From a virus (taxonomy: Duplodnaviria > Heunggongvirae > Uroviricota > Caudoviricetes): DNA of 54,006 nucleotides. Shown here piece after piece: positions 35,545-43,902 of this stretch. Numbering within the stretch: the first letter of the stretch is position 1; each line of letters begins with the position of its first letter. A program made the position numbers and the translations under genes. The notes beneath the pieces were generated by a model. It searched no databases. It worked only from the letters and a program-made list of their open reading frames with translations, and was not told where the DNA came from. Location of the stretch: the IMG/VR virus record IMGVR_UViG_2718218355_000004. One strand, 5' to 3'.

Positions 35545-35817
35545 TTCTCAATCTCTCGATGGCGCAGTGCAGCAGATGCCAGTTGTTCAGGCTGACGTAT
35601 AAAGTATAAATAAACTGGTTCCAGTGTAAAGCCCCCACCTTAATGGAATAAAAACCAAACAACAGATTGCTGGGATACAAACAACGCTTATTATTAAAAG
35701 CGGTTAAACAAATTAAATTTTAATGTTATGCAAATTTGTCAGATCACCATAATATCTCATTTGAAAACCGCTGAAATAACAATCCTATCAGGATTAATCA
35801 TATTAAGGTGAGTAAAT

Positions 35818-35904
35818 ATGGAAAACAACAAATCTGCACATTACGCTCCTTTTTTATCTGTAATACTTTTTGTTTTTTGCTGTGTATGGGCATTATTTTT
35901 ATAA
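35818..35904 (+). CDS. Candidate small hydrophobic peptide (28 aa)
   Basis: ATG preceded by AAGGTGAG SD; translation MENNKSAHYAPFLSVILFVFCCVWALFL has one predicted TM helix; not in supplied ORF track. Confidence 0.3.
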   Translation: MENNKSAHYAPFLSVILFVFCCVWALFL

Positions 35905-35980
35905 AAATATTCACAGATAAAATAAACTCGCCGAATCAGGTTAAGTGTGGGTGCGTTGAGGATGCCTGACACATCAGAGG

Positions 35981-36002
35981 CGGCGAGGGATTTCTCCCTC
36001 GC
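35981..36002. terminator. Perfect 9-bp-stem hairpin 3' of hok
   Basis: GGCGAGGGA-TTTC-TCCCTCGCC immediately downstream of the hok stop; no strong T-tract, so it may be an mRNA 3' stabilising structure rather than a terminator. Confidence 0.35.
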
Positions 36003-36012
36003 CTAGTCACTC

Positions 36013-36168
36013 TTACTCCTCAGGTTCGTAAGCTGTGAAGACAGCGACCTCCGTCTGACCGGTTCGGATTCGCACCTCGCAGAGGTCTTTCCTCGTTACC
36101 AGTGCCGTCACTATGACGGTTAAACAGATGACAATCAGTGCGACTAACATCGCCTTTTGCTGCTTCAT
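36013..36168 (-). CDS. hok: Hok/Gef-family type I toxin (51 aa)
   Basis: MKQQKAMLVALIVICLTVIVTALVTRKDLCEVRIRTGQTEVAVFTAYEPEE, near-identical to my recollection of HokD/RelF; AAGGAG SD 7 nt upstream; the longer in-frame ORF in the track is an artefactual extension. Confidence 0.85.
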   Translation of the reverse strand: MKQQKAMLVALIVICLTVIVTALVTRKDLCEVRIRTGQTEVAVFTAYEPEE

Positions 36169-36379
36169 AGCCTGCTTCTCCTTGCCTTCCGGCGCGTAAG
36201 AGGCTAACCTACATGTGCAAAGCATGAAATTGGCCTCAGATTAATGTTAAGCGTCTTGCCGGACGCGTAATGTTATCTGGGGCTTTTCTCTATCTGCCTT
36301 TGGTGTTCATGCCTGAGGCAGATAGCCTCAAGCACCCGCAGCAATTCTACTTAACTCCCGTCACCTCGCCAATATAAAA

Positions 36380-36469
36380 TCAATCAGAAAGGCGATCCAT
36401 AAGAACAACAGCAAGACAATAAATTGCCATTACAGCCGCAATAGCTAGCGCACATTTGAGAACCAGCAC
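36380..36469 (-). CDS. Candidate small hydrophobic peptide (29 aa)
   Basis: GTG start 5 nt after a perfect AGGAGG SD; translation MLVLKCALAIAAVMAIYCLAVVLMDRLSD; different frame from the 74-aa Cys-rich track ORF. Confidence 0.3.
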   Translation of the reverse strand: MLVLKCALAIAAVMAIYCLAVVLMDRLSD

Positions 36470-36888
36470 GACAACCTCCTGTATTGGACGTACACCAGTT
36501 CTGATAAATATGAGGCTGTCTCATCATTGATTCAATATAACTATTGGGTATAGTTTCTGTGATTTTGTTCTGTAGAAATGGAACACAACAACCAGTCACC
36601 ACCAGCACTTCTTTAAATACGCCAAGTCCGACGCAAGCTAACCTTCTAGTCCGCTTTGAGCGAGGAGCGGACCAAACCCGGCCAACTGACTCTTAAAGGG
36701 GCCGCAGGAATTTTTCGTCTGAACTTTCGAAGCTCCTCTCCCTGAAGACAGAAAACTTCTGTGTGCTGTGGGAATATTGAATCTTTGCCTTAGATATAAA
36801 TAATTTTATCCCGCCTGAAGTTTACATTATTTTATTTATCTGTTTTTCTAAATCAGACTGCACTCCTTACTTAAATCAGGAGCCAGTC

Positions 36889-38088
36889 ATGCCATTTGTT
36901 ATTTATGTGTTTACTATCAGTGCCTTTGCGCTCGGACTCGCGGAATTTGTCCCCATTGGGCTGACAGACGTTATGGCTCAGGGGTTGTGTGTGGGTGTGG
37001 AGCAGACCGGGGCAGCGGTTACAACCTATGCACTGGGGGCAACGTTCGCGGCACCCGTACTGTCTGCGCTGACAGCAAGCTGGAGCCGGAAAAATGTAAT
37101 GCTTACAACTGCCGTTGTGTTTACTGCCGGTAGTCTGGCGGCCGCGTTTGCAGCCACATTACCTCAGCTCCTGTTAGCGCGGTTCATTGCTGGTCTGGGA
37201 CACGGCCTGTTTCTGGCTGCGGCATCCAGTACCGCAGCTCGTCTTGCTGGACCGGGTAAAGCAGGCAGAGCGGTGGCTGTGGTATTTGGTGGCTTTACTC
37301 TGGCGATGGCAATCGGCGTACCGCTGAGTACATGGTTGGGGGGGGTGGTCTCATGGCGTCCAGTTCTCGGCGCTATTGCCGCTTTTGGCGCGTTCGGATT
37401 CCTTGGACTGTTGTTCGGTATGAAAGATCCCGTACGCAGCGTGCCCGGTGAACATAGTGACTCAGCAATGCAGAATATCGGCATGCTGTTTAACCGTAAG
37501 TTGCTGGCCGGCGCGCTGGTTACGGTGCTGGCGTATGCAGGCTCGTTTACGGATTACACCTTTATCGCACCTATTCTGACGCAGGTGACAGGGGTTACCG
37601 GAGCAACGGTGAGTCTGTTTATGCTGGTTTACGGTATTACAGCTGCGGTAGGTAATATTCTTGGTGGGAAACTTACCGACAGCATGGGGGTTAATCGTGC
37701 CAATATACTCATCATTAGCGGCATTGTTGTTGTCGTGCTTGGTATGTGGCTGCTGTCATCCTCACCGGTGAGCATGGGCATTCTGGTTGCGCTGCTGGGT
37801 ATGGTGACATTTGCCGCAGTGCCGGCACTGCAGGCCCGTCTGATTGGTGTCGCTGAGCAACATGCTCCTCATGCGCATGGTGTTGCTGCCGGCCTGAATA
37901 TTGCGGGCTTCAACTCAGGTATAGCGCTGGGATCAGTACTGGGCAGCATTACTATAAGCCACGCCGGTATCGTGTATACCGGTATCAGCGGTGCGATTGT
38001 TTCTCTGCTCGGCCTGCTGTTGCTGCTTGCACAAATCCGTCGCAGCCACAGTCGTAAATTTCAACAGGTTAAAATCGTAGGCCAGTAA
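36889..38088 (+). CDS. MFS transporter (sugar/drug efflux-like)
   Basis: 399 aa with about 12 predicted TM helices and an MFS-type loop 2-3 motif. Confidence 0.8.
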   Translation: MPFVIYVFTISAFALGLAEFVPIGLTDVMAQGLCVGVEQTGAAVTTYALGATFAAPVLSALTASWSRKNVMLTTAVVFTAGSLAAAFAATLPQLLLARFIAGLGHGLFLAAASSTAARLAGPGKAGRAVAVVFGGFTLAMAIGVPLSTWLGGVVSWRPVLGAIAAFGAFGFLGLLFGMKDPVRSVPGEHSDSAMQNIGMLFNRKLLAGALVTVLAYAGSFTDYTFIAPILTQVTGVTGATVSLFMLVYGITAAVGNILGGKLTDSMGVNRANILIISGIVVVVLGMWLLSSSPVSMGILVALLGMVTFAAVPALQARLIGVAEQHAPHAHGVAAGLNIAGFNSGIALGSVLGSITISHAGIVYTGISGAIVSLLGLLLLLAQIRRSHSRKFQQVKIVGQ

Positions 38089-38099
38089 AGGGAGGTTAT

Positions 38100-38792
38100 A
38101 TGCTTACCCGTGAAAATATGCTTAATGGCACATTTGTCAGGGTGCATGAAGCGCTGCTCCCGGCGAATATGCTCTGGGACGCTGAAAAAATACGCGCATC
38201 AATGAACTCTACTCTGGAGGAGCGCCCGACGGGTGCTCCTGTCTGGATATTTGCCTACGGGTCATTGATGTGGAATCCCGTGCTGGCGATTGAAGAAATG
38301 CAACGGGCCCGTCTGAAAGGATGGCAGCGCAGTTTCTGCATTCGTTTGATATCCGGACGAGCGACTCCTGATGTCCCCGGCAGGATGTTATCGCTCGACG
38401 AAGGTGGAATTACCGAAGGTATTGCGTTCAGACTGCCGGAATCGACTCTTATTAATGAGCTGGAAATTGTCTGGACGCGCGAGATGATAACCGGTCTTTA
38501 CCGTCCGGTCTGGGCAGACGTTTCGCTAGGAAACGGTGAGGAAATTCAGGCGCTGGCTTTCGTATCAGACAGACTGCATCCGCATTATGAACAGGACAAT
38601 CTTACAGCGACCGTAGCGTTGAGCATCGCATCTGCCCGTGGAGACATTGGCACGAATGCAGATTATGTATGGAAACTGCAGGCCACTCTGGGTGCGTTGG
38701 GAATACGGGATGATTACGTGAGTGAACTGGCCCTTGCTCTGCATGAGGCTCCCTGTAACGATAAACTTCATCAGCGAGGCGCTTCACTATGA
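38100..38792 (+). CDS. ChaC-family gamma-glutamylcyclotransferase-like protein
   Basis: 230 aa with the ChaC signature IFAYGSLMWNP and alignment to ChaC throughout, from memory. Confidence 0.8.
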   Translation: MLTRENMLNGTFVRVHEALLPANMLWDAEKIRASMNSTLEERPTGAPVWIFAYGSLMWNPVLAIEEMQRARLKGWQRSFCIRLISGRATPDVPGRMLSLDEGGITEGIAFRLPESTLINELEIVWTREMITGLYRPVWADVSLGNGEEIQALAFVSDRLHPHYEQDNLTATVALSIASARGDIGTNADYVWKLQATLGALGIRDDYVSELALALHEAPCNDKLHQRGASL

Positions 38793-39670
38793 GCCATCTG
38801 AGCCATCTGCGAACGTTTCTTGAGGCCTATCGCTCTGGCTCCTTTTCAAAGGCGGCAGAACTACTGGGCATCACTCAGCCCGCGGCGTCACAGCATATCC
38901 AGTCTCTTGAGACTCTGGTTGGTAAGCGTCTGTTTATCAGGCAGGCCAGAGGCGTGACGGCAACCGAAGCTGCGGATGAGCTTGCCCGCTCAGTTTCACC
39001 CTTCATTGATGGTCTGGAAGAAAAGCTGTCCTCTTTCCGGTCAGGCTCTGTACGCGGGGGAACAATTAATCTGGCAGGACCGCCAGATTTTATTCATTCC
39101 CGGCTTGGGACAGTAATGGCTCCACTAATGAAGGAGGGGTATCGCCTACGCTTTCATACCGGCAATAAGCAACGTATTTATTCCCTTTTGCATGACGGGA
39201 GCGCCGATCTCGCTGTTACCGCATCTATGCCTGATGACCGTCTGTACGGCTATGCACATCTACTGACTGAACGCATGCTCCTTGTTCATGCTCCCGCCAT
39301 GTCAGAGATCATCGGATCAGAACCTGGTGCTGAAACGCTTGCCTCATTACCGCTGATTGCTTATGACGAAGAGTTGCCACTGATTAGAGCGCTCTGGGCC
39401 TCCATGTTTCAGAGAGCCCCTGAGATGCAGGCTACATTCACCATTCCGGATTTACGTATTATCCGCGACTTGGTCTGTGACGGCCACGGGTGGACAGTGC
39501 TGCCGGATTATCACTGTGACAATGACCTGAAAAGTGGTCGCCTGATTTCAGTGACACCTGCAGACCTCGCTCCGACTAATCATCTTTATCTGGTCTGGAA
39601 CAAAAGGACGGCTAATAACAGCCGAACCGCCTATGTTCGGGATTACATTCTTAAAACGTTTCCGCGTTGA
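38789..39670 (+). CDS. LysR-family transcriptional regulator
   Basis: 293 aa; N-terminal LysR HTH (FSKAAELLGITQPAASQHIQSLE) and C-terminal substrate-binding domain; start overlaps the chaC-like stop. Confidence 0.85.
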   Translation: MSHLSHLRTFLEAYRSGSFSKAAELLGITQPAASQHIQSLETLVGKRLFIRQARGVTATEAADELARSVSPFIDGLEEKLSSFRSGSVRGGTINLAGPPDFIHSRLGTVMAPLMKEGYRLRFHTGNKQRIYSLLHDGSADLAVTASMPDDRLYGYAHLLTERMLLVHAPAMSEIIGSEPGAETLASLPLIAYDEELPLIRALWASMFQRAPEMQATFTIPDLRIIRDLVCDGHGWTVLPDYHCDNDLKSGRLISVTPADLAPTNHLYLVWNKRTANNSRTAYVRDYILKTFPR

Positions 39671-39800
39671 TGTTTGAAACGGATGATTGGCGATGCGTAT
39701 CATAAGTTACGTATGTCCGCTTCTGGCACAAAGCAGACGCCCACTCTCACGCGAATGCTTTGCCCTTGACTTGCCAACAACCGTATCGCTTGCTCCGCAA

Positions 39801-41078
39801 CTATGGTTTTTTATTAGAATCTTCGCCACTAAATAAATTATAATAAATTGATTTTATTATATATCTGTCAGAATCTATATGGTCAGCACGAGTAGCATGC
39901 TCTAATGTTTCAAATGCTAGGGTTTGTGCGGCTTCAGCAAAAATTCCAGGCCACCCCTTACTCAGCATCGACAGTCCTTTAAGTACCCTTATCTGAATTT
40001 CCCTCATACTGGCACCATCGCGCGCAACAGGTGAGAAAAAGTCTTCAAGTAGATCGTTATTCTGAAGTGGTGCAACATGTACAGAAGGATATTTCACTTC
40101 TATTTCATCAGATTTATTCTGCGCGTAAGCGGAAAGTATACGTACACCTCTGCCAATGACATCAATGGCGGTTCCAGGATCGTTCACTGCGGGGGAAAGG
40201 GCTCGGCAGGCTATTTCGGCCATGACGCTAAGACAAAATCGGGGGTCCTGAGCAAATGAACGTACATCCGAGACAATAATCGTCTCAAGTAAATCGGTGC
40301 TGATTGATGACTCCTGGCCCTGACTCAGGTACAAAACTGGCGTGGACGGATGTATGAAACTGCCCGGCTGCGCCACGAGGTATACATGACGGGGATCATT
40401 GGTCAGCAGCTTGCTGAGTTTCACCATATCAACATATTCAACATAGCCAATCTTTTTCGGATAAACTGCAACCGTTCCTTTCGGCTGTTCATTGTTCTCA
40501 AGCCATGGATATCCGCCGAGACAGGGATTTCTTGCTCTCGCAATAAATGTTTCGATGGCCGCCTGTTCTACTTTTGCCGTTGTCTCACCAACCCTCCCCA
40601 GAGAGGTCAAATGCTGTATCCAGCGAAGCAATGTGATGAGGATTAAGGCAATGACAACCAGTGTTACAATGAATAAAATGACTCTCCCCCTTTCTCCATA
40701 AGCTCCCATATTGAGGGCAATAATCCCTACCAGACTGAAGAGAAAAGAACCGATGAAGGTGGCCAGTACATTTTGTGTGGTGACGTCTTCAACAACTAAA
40801 CGAGTAGCTCTGGGAGTCACATTAGTAGTGGCTGAACCGTAGGCTGTGACCATGATGCTCAGCGAAAATGTGGTCACTGCCAGCATACTCGATGCCAGTA
40901 TGTTCAGAATGTTATCGACTGCTTCCGCACCAACTTTCACGGAAACCGACTCAGGTATCATTGATTTAAAAAGAATTGATAAAAGGGCCGTTATTATTGC
41001 GACAATTGCGAATAACGTTGCCCTGAACCATAGTTTTTTAAATGTCTGCTTCAGCATCCATTTCCAGCGTGAAATCAT
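39801..41078 (-). CDS. Membrane protein, DUF2254-like
   Basis: About 425 aa with N-terminal multi-TM region and soluble C-terminal domain; start chosen at internal ATG with GAGGGA SD; family by recollection. Confidence 0.5.
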   Translation of the reverse strand: MISRWKWMLKQTFKKLWFRATLFAIVAIITALLSILFKSMIPESVSVKVGAEAVDNILNILASSMLAVTTFSLSIMVTAYGSATTNVTPRATRLVVEDVTTQNVLATFIGSFLFSLVGIIALNMGAYGERGRVILFIVTLVVIALILITLLRWIQHLTSLGRVGETTAKVEQAAIETFIARARNPCLGGYPWLENNEQPKGTVAVYPKKIGYVEYVDMVKLSKLLTNDPRHVYLVAQPGSFIHPSTPVLYLSQGQESSISTDLLETIIVSDVRSFAQDPRFCLSVMAEIACRALSPAVNDPGTAIDVIGRGVRILSAYAQNKSDEIEVKYPSVHVAPLQNNDLLEDFFSPVARDGASMREIQIRVLKGLSMLSKGWPGIFAEAAQTLAFETLEHATRADHIDSDRYIIKSIYYNLFSGEDSNKKP

Positions 41079-41113
41079 TCTGCATTCCCTCATATTGCAG
41101 CCGGGATAAATAA

Positions 41114-41134
41114 ATGCCGCCTCTGTGGCGGCAT
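41114..41134 (-). terminator. Hairpin downstream of the BCCT transporter gene
   Basis: ATGCCGCC-ACAGA-GGCGGCAT (minus strand) followed by an A/T-rich tract. Confidence 0.35.
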
Positions 41135-41141
41135 GTTGCTG

Positions 41142-43145
41142 TTAACGAACCAGATGCAGGAAGTGCAGGTGTTTTTCGTACTGGTCCAGTATGTCATTAA
41201 TCAGCTGTTCCTGATTCCAGCCCATTACATCATAATTTTGGCCGCCCTCTTTGAGATAGACTTCAGCGCGATAATATCGATGTTGTTCACTCTGCTGCTC
41301 ATCATTATCCAGCGCAGCGAGCGCGAAGGTCGGTGAGTTATACCCGCGAAGCCTCACTTCATATATATAATTCAGCTCGTTGCCCAAATCGACTTCAAGG
41401 CGAATACGATCCTCGGCGGCGTCACTGATGTGGCTTATCGTTCCCTGCTTGTTAAGTTCCTCCTGAACCAGCGTCATGGCGGGTTGGATAATGTCGTCCA
41501 TAAAACGTTTCACAAGAGAGCGCTTCGGCAAATACGCGATATTGCGTAACCTTCTCTGCCAGGGAATTGGGTTACGTGCAGCCGTAGGAGCAATAGTCGC
41601 CATGCTAAGGCTTTCACGCTTGGTCAAATCCCGACGCAGGGCTTTTAACAGTCCGTATATGGATATTAATAAGATAACTGAGAAGGGCAATGCACTCGCT
41701 ATCGTTACGGTTTGCAACGCACTCAGCCCCCCTGCGATCAGCAGGGCAATAGCAACAACGCCCATGAGCGATGCCCAGAAAATTCGCTGCCAGACGGGCG
41801 TGTTTGCCACCCCACCTGATGCCAGAGTATCCACAACCATTGCCCCCGAATCAGCAGACGTTACAAAGAAGACGATGACCATCGCCATTGCAATGAATGA
41901 CAGCACGGAAGAGAACGGGAAATGCTCCAGGAAATTAAACAGGGCAAGCGCAACATCCTGCTGAACGGTATTGGCGAGGTCAGTGGCGCCCTGGTTCATG
42001 ATGAGATAGATGGCGCTGTTTCCAAACACCGTCATCCACATGAGCGTAAAGCCGGCGGGAACAAACAACACGCCAGTCACGAACTCACGAATTGTCCTGC
42101 CGCGGGAAACGCGTGCAATGAACATACCTACAAACGGCGACCATGAAAGCCACCATCCCCAGTATAATAATGTCCAGCCCCCCAGCCAGTTGCTCGACTT
42201 GGGTTCATACGCGTAAAGGTTGAACGTTTTACTCACCAGTTCCGACAGATAACCACCCGTATTTTCCACAAATGACTTCAGCAGAAGCACAGTGGGACCC
42301 AGGCACAAGACCAGCGCCAGGAGCAACACCGCCAGGCCCAGATTAAGCTCAGACAGGATGCGTATTCCCTTGTCCAGGCCGGACACCACCGAAATCGTCG
42401 CTAACCCCGTGATGACCACGATCAAAATGACCTGTACCGTTTCATTGATGGGCACGCCGAAAAGATGGTTCAAACCGGCATTCACCTGCAATACACCGTA
42501 ACCCAGCGATGTTGCAACGCCAAAGACAGTGCCTATCACGGCGAAGATATCAACCGCGTGGCCTATAGGCCCGTAAATGCGATCGCCGATAATGGGATAG
42601 AGCGCAGAACGCAGCGTTAAAGGCAGACCGTGACGGTAACTGAAAAAGGCCAGAATCAGCGCCACGATGGCATAAATTGCCCATGCGTGCAGACCCCAGT
42701 GGAAGAACGTCAGGCGCATGGCTTCCTTCGCTGCCGCAACGGTCTCTGGAGTGCCGACAGGTGGCGAAAGATAATGCATCACAGGTTCGGCAACGCCAAA
42801 GAACATCAGGCCGATCCCCATCCCTGCCGAAAAAAGCATCGCGAACCAGGAGTGGTAGCTGAAATCAGGCTGCGCATGGTCTGGGCCCAGCTTTATATCA
42901 CCGTAACGTGAGAGTCCAAGGAACGTGACGCTCAGTAAAATCAGGGCCACAGCAAGTATGTAGAACCAGCTGGCATTCGTGAAGATTTGTTGCTGAAGTA
43001 GTTTAAAATTTTTGTCGGCGACATCCGGGAATACGGCGGCAAAGGCGACAAGAAGGAAAATTAGCAAAGCAGATGTAAAGAATACCGCTTTGTTAATCTG
43101 GCTTGTAGACTTCTTTGGGGTTGTATCATTTTCACTCATAATCAT
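41142..43145 (-). CDS. BCCT-family transporter, BetT-like (choline/betaine/carnitine)
   Basis: 667 aa; BCCT transmembrane core with conserved Trp-rich motif (WTLLYWGWWLSWSPFVGMFIARVSRGRTIREF) and long C-terminal cytoplasmic extension like BetT. Confidence 0.85.
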   Translation of the reverse strand: MIMSENDTTPKKSTSQINKAVFFTSALLIFLLVAFAAVFPDVADKNFKLLQQQIFTNASWFYILAVALILLSVTFLGLSRYGDIKLGPDHAQPDFSYHSWFAMLFSAGMGIGLMFFGVAEPVMHYLSPPVGTPETVAAAKEAMRLTFFHWGLHAWAIYAIVALILAFFSYRHGLPLTLRSALYPIIGDRIYGPIGHAVDIFAVIGTVFGVATSLGYGVLQVNAGLNHLFGVPINETVQVILIVVITGLATISVVSGLDKGIRILSELNLGLAVLLLALVLCLGPTVLLLKSFVENTGGYLSELVSKTFNLYAYEPKSSNWLGGWTLLYWGWWLSWSPFVGMFIARVSRGRTIREFVTGVLFVPAGFTLMWMTVFGNSAIYLIMNQGATDLANTVQQDVALALFNFLEHFPFSSVLSFIAMAMVIVFFVTSADSGAMVVDTLASGGVANTPVWQRIFWASLMGVVAIALLIAGGLSALQTVTIASALPFSVILLISIYGLLKALRRDLTKRESLSMATIAPTAARNPIPWQRRLRNIAYLPKRSLVKRFMDDIIQPAMTLVQEELNKQGTISHISDAAEDRIRLEVDLGNELNYIYEVRLRGYNSPTFALAALDNDEQQSEQHRYYRAEVYLKEGGQNYDVMGWNQEQLINDILDQYEKHLHFLHLVR

Positions 43146-43479
43146 TTATTCCATTAATTAAATCCGCACTGGATAGAAGGTACTACCTCTCACAGAGTAG
43201 CAAAGTTCAACTGGCTATGCGGGGTTAATCGGAATGCATGGTGGAATGAGTGCCGATACAAATCATCCTATATTCTAAGGAGTTTTAAGTTACTCAGCCT
43301 GCCAATTACTGGGGCATTTAATTTGTATGATCTGTATCAAAGCTGGGATATAAGTTAAGTGAAGTATATTAGGCACGAATTACCAGCGTCTGCTCTTGGC
43401 ACAAAGCGGACAACCACGCTAGCTCTACCCTGTGCCACAAAATGTCAATTTGCATCTGAACTAATGCACTTTAATCTCG

Positions 43480-43902
43480 TCACTTCAATAAATACCGAAC
43501 ATCCCCCTGATAAAACGACAATATGCGCTGCATAACTTCGCTCTTCCGGCACTCGCGACAGATTATGTTTAGGCGACTGTCGTAGCGACGTATTTCTCCG
43601 TCAGGTAATGACCAGATAAGGTCCGGATCAACCACAACCGGTTTCTTCAGCTTTGCCCTCGATAATTTTTTGCGGGCATTTTGCCAGTCTTTACGAGCCT
43701 GTTCAGACGGGAATAACCCGTAGCCAGAATTGTATACATCGCCACTGGCAACCAGCTCTCTGGCCAGAACGCTCATCAGATATCTTGTTGCCCCAGTTTT
43801 AGCTTCCAGTTGTCGTAACGTCTCGCGCCCACTCTGGCGTACGAGTTCAAGAACCTGCCCTTTAATTTTTTCCCGCTCTTCTTGTGTAAAAACTTTTGCC
43901 AC
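43480..43902 (-). CDS. Hypothetical protein (140 aa), possible winged-helix
   Basis: GTG start with AGGAGG SD; sits immediately after the replication initiator gene, where lambdoid phages usually encode a helicase loader, but shows no ATPase motifs. Confidence 0.4.
   Translation of the reverse strand: MAKVFTQEEREKIKGQVLELVRQSGRETLRQLEAKTGATRYLMSVLARELVASGDVYNSGYGLFPSEQARKDWQNARKKLSRAKLKKPVVVDPDLIWSLPDGEIRRYDSRLNIICRECRKSEVMQRILSFYQGDVRYLLK

Follow-up and report, generated by a model that had tools for sequence, protein, structure and literature searches.

A conserved 29-codon reading frame upstream of hokD in a Rac-like lambdoid prophage is a candidate gene for a small inner-membrane peptide

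Introduction

The type I toxins TisB, ZorO, ShoB, Ibs, and DinQ are peptides of 19 to 35 amino acids that consist of a single hydrophobic helix, are often unannotated, and are often carried on mobile elements. Each is accompanied by an antitoxin sRNA, encoded in cis or divergently, and their mRNAs have long, processed leaders in which translation is blocked; in several of the short E. coli type I toxins, polar or charged residues line the helix. The mRNAs of hok and other type I toxins also show pairing between their 5' and 3' ends. The small membrane proteins MgtS, AcrZ, KdpF, PmrR, MgtR, and CydX/AppX are chromosomally encoded, usually within or close to their partner's operon. In phages, morons such as bor and lom of lambda are autonomous promoter-gene-terminator units inserted between phage genes.

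Here we describe a 29-codon open reading frame (ORF) upstream of hokD in a stretch of Caudoviricetes DNA of 54,006 nucleotides (IMG/VR record IMGVR_UViG_2718218355_000004), the whole of which is referred to below as the window. Our preferred reading, to which we would give a probability of about 0.6, is that the ORF is a real, translated gene for a 29-residue inner-membrane peptide, that it forms an autonomous moron-like module of lambdoid/Rac-like prophages that is expressed in the lysogen, and that the peptide acts through helix packing.

Results

The ORF, its Shine-Dalgarno sequence, and its annotation

The ORF occupies positions 36380..36469 of the minus strand, with a GTG start at 36469-36467 and a TGA stop at 36382-36380, and its translation is MLVLKCALAIAAVMAIYCLAVVLMDRLSD (29 residues). 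The Shine-Dalgarno (SD) sequence AGGAGG, at 36480-36475 on the minus strand, is separated from the GTG by a 5-nt spacer, and the minus strand reads ...CATATTTATCAGAACTGGTGTACGTCCAATAC AGGAGG TTGTC GTG CTG GTT ... GAT TGA. The initial annotation had reported a GTG-initiated frame 5 nt past an AGGAGG, with coordinates, SD, and translation that are all borne out here, although it did not name the strand, which is minus throughout, and its estimate that the frame lies about 210 bp upstream of hok on the same strand agrees with the measured distance: the start of hokD is 212 nt beyond the ORF stop, and both are on the minus strand. The motif by itself is within chance, as AGGAGG-N5-RTG is seen twice in the window against 0.66 expected, two or more copies are seen in 13 of 100 shuffles, and ORFs of at least 20 aa are plentiful locally (35 within 2.1 kb). 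The ORF rises above chance because of the intactness of its frame, its codon-periodic substitution, and the conservation of its SD, spacing, and start, all of which are detailed below.

The description of the peptide as unannotated is correct for most PGAP annotation, since PGAP places no feature at the ORF in an identical genome or in nearly all of the matches listed, but it does not hold throughout: PGAP calls a variant of the ORF once, as the hypothetical protein WP_000960667.1, Prokka calls the Shigella M90T copy, and the exact 29-residue peptide is present in protein databases as a "hypothetical protein" from 146 contigs, with one variant found in 650 contigs. In the deposit of phage HannyBb (L002 3345-3634), two hypothetical CDSs are drawn on the opposite strand over the ORF region, and these are probably a mis-call made in place of the SD-preceded 29-codon ORF.

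Distribution and homology searches

Of 5426 complete E. coli genomes, 2513 have a match to the 261-nt segment that surrounds the ORF, and 1692 of these contain at least 80% of it; a genome has up to five matching places, and the total is roughly 3000. Only four isolated coliphages contain the segment (Tritos, Evi, mEp460_ev081, and HannyBb), and it is found in 143 plasmid records, of which 124 are Shigella virulence plasmids (pINV). A codon-degenerate pattern scan, which covered one genome per species, gave matches only in species of the E. coli group (E. albertii, E. ruysiae, and Shigella) and in three short MAG contigs. These contigs of 2.6-3.3 kb (L134, L135, and L137, labelled Collinsella, Scatousia, and Haemophilus) hold an E. 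coli-type ORF and are most likely mis-binned coliphage fragments rather than a sign of wider host range. On these searches the family is confined to Escherichia/Shigella.

The 29-residue peptide is too short to be used as a protein homology query, and a 40-aa in-frame translation was therefore used. Among 5.8 billion proteins searched, all matches were Escherichia entries, 28-68 aa long and labelled "hypothetical" or "membrane protein"; those at the upper end of this range stem from gene callers picking non-conserved upstream starts, and the search gave no longer homologue that would make the ORF a gene fragment. Neither Pfam (E≤10) nor NCBIfam nor PADLOC matched the peptide, and PHROGs gave one match, far under significance. 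In a literature search, the peptide and its accessions were mentioned nowhere. SMP3 and SMP7, the two novel membrane peptides for which a preprint on UPEC small proteins gives coordinates, differ from the ORF in length and locus.

Evidence for coding and selection

The frame was examined in 138 loci, which were collected as BLAST matches in E. coli genomes and phages and as pattern matches in viral and genome contigs, with changes counted by parsimony on a neighbour-joining tree. The pattern scan, the source of most loci, demanded the C-terminal residues and thereby constrains codons 16-29; a separate test of codons 2-15 controls for this pattern constraint, though not for how the loci were chosen. 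The 29-codon frame is intact in 132 of the 138 loci. The stop is lost in four, adding 2 or 6 residues, and a frameshift is found in two, and it is these same two in which the SD is degraded to AGAAAG and the putative -10 hexamer to TGTATT. All intact copies have AGGAGG, AGGAGA, GGGAGG, or AGGGGG as SD, at constant spacing, and the start codon is GTG everywhere except in the Shigella copy, where it is ATG.

Changes at codon positions 1, 2, and 3 number 32, 19, and 58, respectively, and the ORF has the lowest substitution density of the region, with 1.26 changes per site compared with 2.38 in the hok promoter, 1.86 in the hok leader, and 3-6 in the upstream sequence. Classed by codon, 36 changes are synonymous and 34 are non-synonymous, for 22 and 62 sites, respectively, which corresponds to a dN/dS of ~0.34 (binomial p 5.9e-6), the best of the six frames. 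Codons 2-15 alone give a dN/dS of 0.28 (p 2.3e-5). In the two remaining sense frames the values are 0.7-1.3, and the best antisense frame has a value of 0.4-0.5, the usual echo of a coding frame. Pairwise pN/pS against the most divergent BLAST-derived copies is 0.24 (L006) and 0.18 (L112). All replacements are conservative (A/V/T/I/L/M in the helix, D/E, R/H, and L/F), and 13 positions of the peptide are invariant. Since the family is young and narrow, with a mean column identity of 93%, the selection test draws on only ~70 inferred changes. The initial annotation had allowed that the frame might not be conserved, or that the region might belong to the hok leader and promoter only; the frame proves to be conserved, bears a coding signature, and, as described in the next section, is also found without hok. 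We are fairly confident that translation and selection act on the frame, or did so until very recently.

Linkage to hok and module boundaries

The hokD locus occupies 36013..36337 of the minus strand, with the leader/sok-complementary region at 36337-36163 and the CDS at 36168-36013. The Rfam hok/sok model RF01794 matches from 36337 to 36163 with 116 bits, and PGAP names the gene hokD. Its promoter, TTGGCG-17-TAGAAT (36344..36372, minus), has a -35 hexamer (36372-36367) that starts 8 nt after the ORF stop. Among 128 informative loci, hok lies 201-213 nt downstream of the ORF in 109 (85%), and the ORF is present without hok in 19. In 17 of these 19, similarity ends 2 nt beyond the TGA and a convergent gene follows, annotated as DUF1971 in L007. 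Hok loci of the 933W type share only 35939-36357 and have no ORF, and many hok loci retain just the last 23 nt of the ORF, abutting a queH gene. On the upstream side, homology breakpoints recur at ~36672, which is the outer edge of a conserved block of 190 nt (see below), at 36512, just upstream of the putative -10 hexamer, and at 36492, just upstream of the SD, with BL21 as an example of the last. By these comparisons the ORF is a separable unit, dispensable in that it is often lost, that usually but not necessarily rides with hok. The proposal that it makes a cluster of small membrane peptides together with hok finds no backing here, as the adjacency looks like linkage between two separable mosaic modules.

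In BL21 (L004 2571-2930), a truncated DUF977 gene (119 aa versus 140 aa) reads on into the ORF for 13 codons, in another frame; PGAP labels this chimera a plain DUF977 protein and leaves the 29-codon ORF, with its SD AGGAGA and its GTG at NZ_CP053601.1:1561986 on the minus strand (L004:2610), uncalled. We considered and rejected the idea that the ORF is itself a DUF977 remnant, as the BL21 DUF977 gene is truncated, is in another frame, and enters the ORF past the recombination junction at 36492. Other short hydrophobic ORFs occur near hok, at 35545-36012 and 36113-36199; among them are a 28-aa frame on the plus strand (35818..35904, MENNKSAHYAPFLSVILFVFCCVWALFL) and another 28-aa frame on the plus strand, at 36113..36199, that is antisense to hok. 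One of the two is presumably the 28-aa peptide to which the initial annotation refers.

Prophage context and cargo hotspot

The 1-kb region around the ORF is 100% identical to several E. coli chromosomes. In an identical genome, PGAP gives the gene order of the rightward phage operon (window minus strand) as intR-xisR-rcbA-ralR-recT-recE-racC-ydaE-kilR-sieB-ydaF, continuing further on with a ydaT-family gene, a replication gene, and DUF977, after which come five cargo genes, an unannotated gap with the ORF, hokD, DUF1367, DUF1364, and DUF1133. The window region is a Rac-like lambdoid prophage. From the PGAP annotation and the ORF coordinates, the DUF977 gene is at 43480-43902 (minus), and the five genes of the cargo island fill 6.3 kb at 36889..43139; from the DUF977 side, they encode a BCCT transporter, a DUF2254 protein, a LysR regulator, a gamma-glutamylcyclotransferase, and an MFS transporter. 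A view of the MFS side as host flank was discarded, as the full annotation places the cargo inside the Rac-like prophage. The ORF and the MFS-LysR portion of this cargo are convergent, and for this reason read-through from the early operon cannot feed the ORF here; because the cargo cuts it off from that operon, the ORF would have to use a promoter of its own in this arrangement.

A conserved non-coding block at 36540..36672 travels with the ORF and is ~130 nt long. Its outer edge has a GC-rich hairpin, GTCCGCT-N10-AGCGGAC (36672-36649), that is not followed by a T-run, and in eight loci with different upstream genes the homology begins at 36667-36673. Searches of the block (36540-36672) found no ORF or Rfam match. 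Its role may be that of a processing or termination element acting on cargo transcripts, or simply of a homology arm for cargo exchange. Elsewhere, the slot between DUF977 and the block (36889-43902 in the window) is filled with genes for DUF4145, HEPN, LA2681-HEPN, SEC-C-domain, and QueH proteins, methyltransferases, and proteins of no known function, on either strand, as judged by comparison of other E. coli prophages (L005, L008-L013, L141, and L142). The slot looks like an exchange site for defence genes and other cargo with a fixed right-hand boundary near 36672.

Predicted promoter of the ORF

A predicted sigma-70-type promoter precedes the ORF at 36507..36535 on the minus strand, with a -35 hexamer TTGAAT (36535-36530), a 17-nt spacer, and a -10 hexamer CATATT (36512-36507). 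It has 8 of 12 consensus matches, which is under the threshold of the promoter scan. The hexamers (TTGAAG/TTGAGT plus CATATT) and the 17-nt distance are kept in four to five diverged lineages with different spacers (L008, L112, L133, L017, and L006), and nowhere upstream of the ORF were fewer changes counted than in the -10 hexamer. The -35 hexamer or the whole promoter is absent or mutated in some lineages (BL21, the L136 group, and the L089/L118 group), whereas E. coli W (NC_017664.1, around 1512166-1512424) and 042 have alleles that include it. Conservation of the hexamers despite divergence of the spacer is the pattern expected of a working promoter, and such a promoter would place the transcription start near 36500 and give a leader of ~31 nt. 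Two other candidate control elements were rejected: a minus-strand promoter ATCACA-18-TATATT, which is not conserved in the alignments, and a LexA box in the conserved CTGG...ACAG / TACGTC stretch of the leader, the spacing of which is wrong.

The dRNA-seq start-site table of S. flexneri M90T has no start at the position equivalent to the predicted promoter, and, on the same strand, the closest starts lie ~320 nt ahead of the ORF start and at icsP. Published work describes the region of pINV around this copy as H-NS-silenced. As the region is silenced and the copy has diverged, the missing start is weak negative evidence.

A plus-strand promoter-like site, TTGATT-16-TATAGT (36527-36554), stands back-to-back with the predicted -35 hexamer of the ORF, and the diverged pINV copy retains its -10 as well. 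The site points away from the ORF and would here drive transcription toward the MFS operon, whose start codon is at 36889; the M90T table has no corresponding start.

The copy on the Shigella virulence plasmid

Homology to pINV spans window positions 36569 to 36285 and then ends, and the fragment (L006 2435-2704; S. flexneri M90T pWR100 90908-90997, complement) is 78% identical. It keeps the ORF, intact and with ATG as its start codon, together with the ORF promoter region, the promoter of hok, and the first hairpin of the hok leader; hok itself is deleted. As the fragment lies ~290 nt upstream of icsP, the upstream regulatory region of icsP is in part the remnant of a phage hok locus. The M90T dRNA-seq data also contain an orphan minus-strand start at 91318, transcription from which would read through the ORF toward icsP.

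Properties of the peptide

The hydrophobic stretch of the peptide comprises residues 2-24, with a Kyte-Doolittle hydropathy of 2.7 over the 19 residues 6-24, and the GRAVY is 1.81. The only charged residue ahead of the C-terminal DRLSD tail is Lys5. The hydropathy and the acidic tail agree with the initial description of a single TM helix with a short polar tail. By the positive-inside rule, the charge distribution predicts a single-pass topology with an N-in/C-out orientation. Residues A7, A11, A15, C18, and V22 share one helical face, forming a small-residue surface, and the helix core is uniformly apolar, without charged or polar lining. It is suggestive only that a small-residue face is of the kind used for helix-helix packing, and likewise that the helix has no lining that would indicate an ion path through a bundle of such single helices. 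The tail sequence LMDRLSD resembles LDPRLKS of AppX, but kinship was rejected as a Pfam search gave no match of the peptide to the CydX family.

Discussion

In our proposed model, the module would comprise a sigma-70-type promoter of its own and a GTG start preceded by a strong SD, and it would sit at the inner edge of a cargo hotspot, between the DUF977 gene of the replication module and the hok/nin region. Expression from its own promoter would imply expression in the lysogen. The peptide is predicted to be oriented with the Lys5 side in the cytoplasm, a helix of approximately residues 2-24 across the membrane, and the acidic DRLSD tail outside. Because of the uniform hydrophobicity, the lack of internal charge, and the small-residue face (A7/A11/A15/C18), the peptide may pack against another membrane helix, either its own or that of a host or phage membrane protein, and it would then be a modulator or exclusion factor rather than a self-sufficient pore-forming toxin. 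This mode of action is deduced from composition only.

The initial annotation called the peptide toxin-like, and an alternative to our model is that it is a type I toxin that damages the inner membrane, is silenced by an RNA antitoxin and/or by a fold that hides its SD, and forms a two-toxin cluster with hok. The size and hydrophobicity of the peptide and its prophage site beside hok/sok fit this proposal, and two sequence features could be taken to speak for it. RNAalifold predicts a 13-bp helix between the SD region (GUC-AAU-CAGGAGG, 36475-36492) and the 3' end of the ORF (CUUUCUG-AUU-GAU, 36379-36391) that is formable in 95.9% of sequence-pair cells, which recalls the 5'-3' pairing of type I toxin mRNAs, and the window contains an antisense promoter-like site, TTAACT-18-TAAAAT, at 36351-36380 on the plus strand. 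However, the helix, which may form, shows no compensatory pairs, shuffling of alignment columns does equally well (491 of 500), both of its arms are constrained in any case as SD and coding sequence, and it is missing from the single-sequence minimum-energy fold, which puts the SD in a loop; that fold is no better than shuffles (z of -0.53), and its hairpin between the 5' leader and codons 5-9 was dismissed because it is lost in L008-type alleles. The antisense site was rejected as the promoter of an antisense RNA, as its -10 is TGAAAT in most alleles, which loses the key A at position 2, and the downstream flank is replaced in the arrangement without hok. The search for an overlapping antisense RNA that had been suggested as a check, carried out here on the sequence, thus gave no conserved antisense promoter, and Rfam gave no family overlapping the ORF even at E≤1; a repeat search at the ORF found no direct repeat indicative of a divergent, complementary sRNA. 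The peptide is not similar to Hok, with no BLASTP alignment to HokD at E≤100, and has no match in Pfam, NCBIfam, or PADLOC; its helix has no charged or polar lining, the predicted leader is only ~31 nt, and up to five matching places are found per genome with no partner gene identified. The toxin-like label is therefore not supported, and we consider a type I toxin unlikely. Because the predicted promoter is moderately strong, the strong SD is exposed, and no antitoxin was identified, a benign membrane protein would be easier to reconcile with the sequence than a potent toxin.

Two further explanations give the peptide itself no role. The DNA might be a control region upstream of hok, or a recombination anchor of the cargo hotspot, in which the frame is incidental: 8 nt separate the end of the ORF from the -35 hexamer of hok, 85% of loci are hok-linked at a fixed distance, the SD-start motif is within chance, PGAP is normally silent at this position, and the M90T table has no start at the predicted promoter of the Shigella copy. 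Third-position bias and a dN/dS of ~0.3 that are specific to the ORF frame argue in the other direction, as do the conserved start, SD, and spacing, which decay together only in the frameshifted copies; moreover, the ORF is intact where hok is missing, in the DUF1971 arrangement and on pINV, and 933W-type hok loci, in which homology ends at 36357, work without it. A non-coding explanation is on this evidence very unlikely. The ORF might alternatively be translated as a uORF whose peptide is irrelevant, and modulate hok by promoter occlusion or by yielding a 5'-extended mRNA unable to pair its 5' and 3' ends. Transcription of the ORF would indeed cross the hok promoter, with no terminator in between, and the distance to hok is fixed at 212 nt, but purifying selection on the amino acid sequence would be needless for a purely cis-acting uORF, and the ORF is maintained where hok is absent, so that this explanation is hardly probable.

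A more far-reaching possibility, which we regard as distinctly unlikely, is that the peptide is a membrane-acting effector of prophage-host conflict that moves as the fixed edge of a lambdoid cargo/defence hotspot and has been co-opted upstream of icsP on the Shigella plasmid. Such an effector may be a type I-like toxin in which the SD pairs with the 3' end of the ORF and thereby gates translation, or it may be a helix that tunes or partners Hok or a host membrane protein, leading to phage exclusion or lysogen stabilisation.

If the ORF is translated, as in our preferred reading of an autonomous module for a small inner-membrane peptide, then roughly one in three or more of the E. coli genomes sequenced, and essentially every Shigella virulence plasmid sampled, encode a tiny membrane protein of a family that routine RefSeq annotation omits and no curated family library includes. 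The small membrane proteins of prophages are under-counted, and the ORF provides one testable candidate for them; it overturns nothing that is known. The ORF also marks the conserved inner boundary of a hotspot with the order DUF977, cargo, ORF, and hok, and can help to delimit lambdoid cargo islands.

Comparison with known systems

The members of the Hok/Gef family resemble the ORF peptide in being small and hydrophobic, with one TM helix, and in being carried by lambdoid prophages, and here hokD is adjacent on the same strand. Hok/Gef proteins are of ~50 aa compared with 29 aa for the peptide, which is without a periplasmic domain, and homology to them was not detected, as both Pfam at E≤10 and BLASTP against HokD at E≤100 were empty. 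Unlike hok, the ORF was found to have no overlapping mok-like frame, Sok-like antisense RNA, or structured long leader. A peptide of 29 residues with a hydropathy of 2.7 is a small hydrophobic membrane peptide of the kind seen among the type I toxins TisB, ZorO, ShoB, Ibs, and DinQ, but the ORF differs from these in that no sRNA signature was found, either antisense or divergent, by promoter scan, Rfam, and repeat searches at the locus (an RNA acting in trans may be encoded elsewhere), and in its inferred leader of ~31 nt and the apolar core of its helix.

In form, the peptide is similar to MgtS, AcrZ, KdpF, PmrR, MgtR, and CydX/AppX: like these, it is ~30 aa long, spans the membrane with one helix that has a small-residue face, and is preceded by a strong SD, and proteins of that kind need no toxicity for their function. 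The purifying selection on its frame (dN/dS of 0.34, intact in 132 of 138 loci) is also as would be expected of a small-protein gene. It is unlike them in being an accessory gene of prophages that has no constant neighbour other than hok, and none of their families matched it.

The resemblance to morons lies in the genetic setting. The ORF is positioned between phage modules with a predicted promoter of its own and boundaries that hug the unit, it is dispensable, and it would be expressed in the lysogen; mosaic junctions bound the unit, which is absent from 933W-type hok loci and shortened in others. It differs from morons in lacking a clear intrinsic terminator after the ORF in the hok-linked arrangement, where a terminator scan found none between the ORF stop and the hok promoter, and in having a promoter that is only predicted; in the arrangement without hok, the scan placed terminator-like sites only inside the ORF and none downstream. 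The ORF family is best placed among the small inner-membrane proteins that prophages carry, as a new and uncharacterised family.
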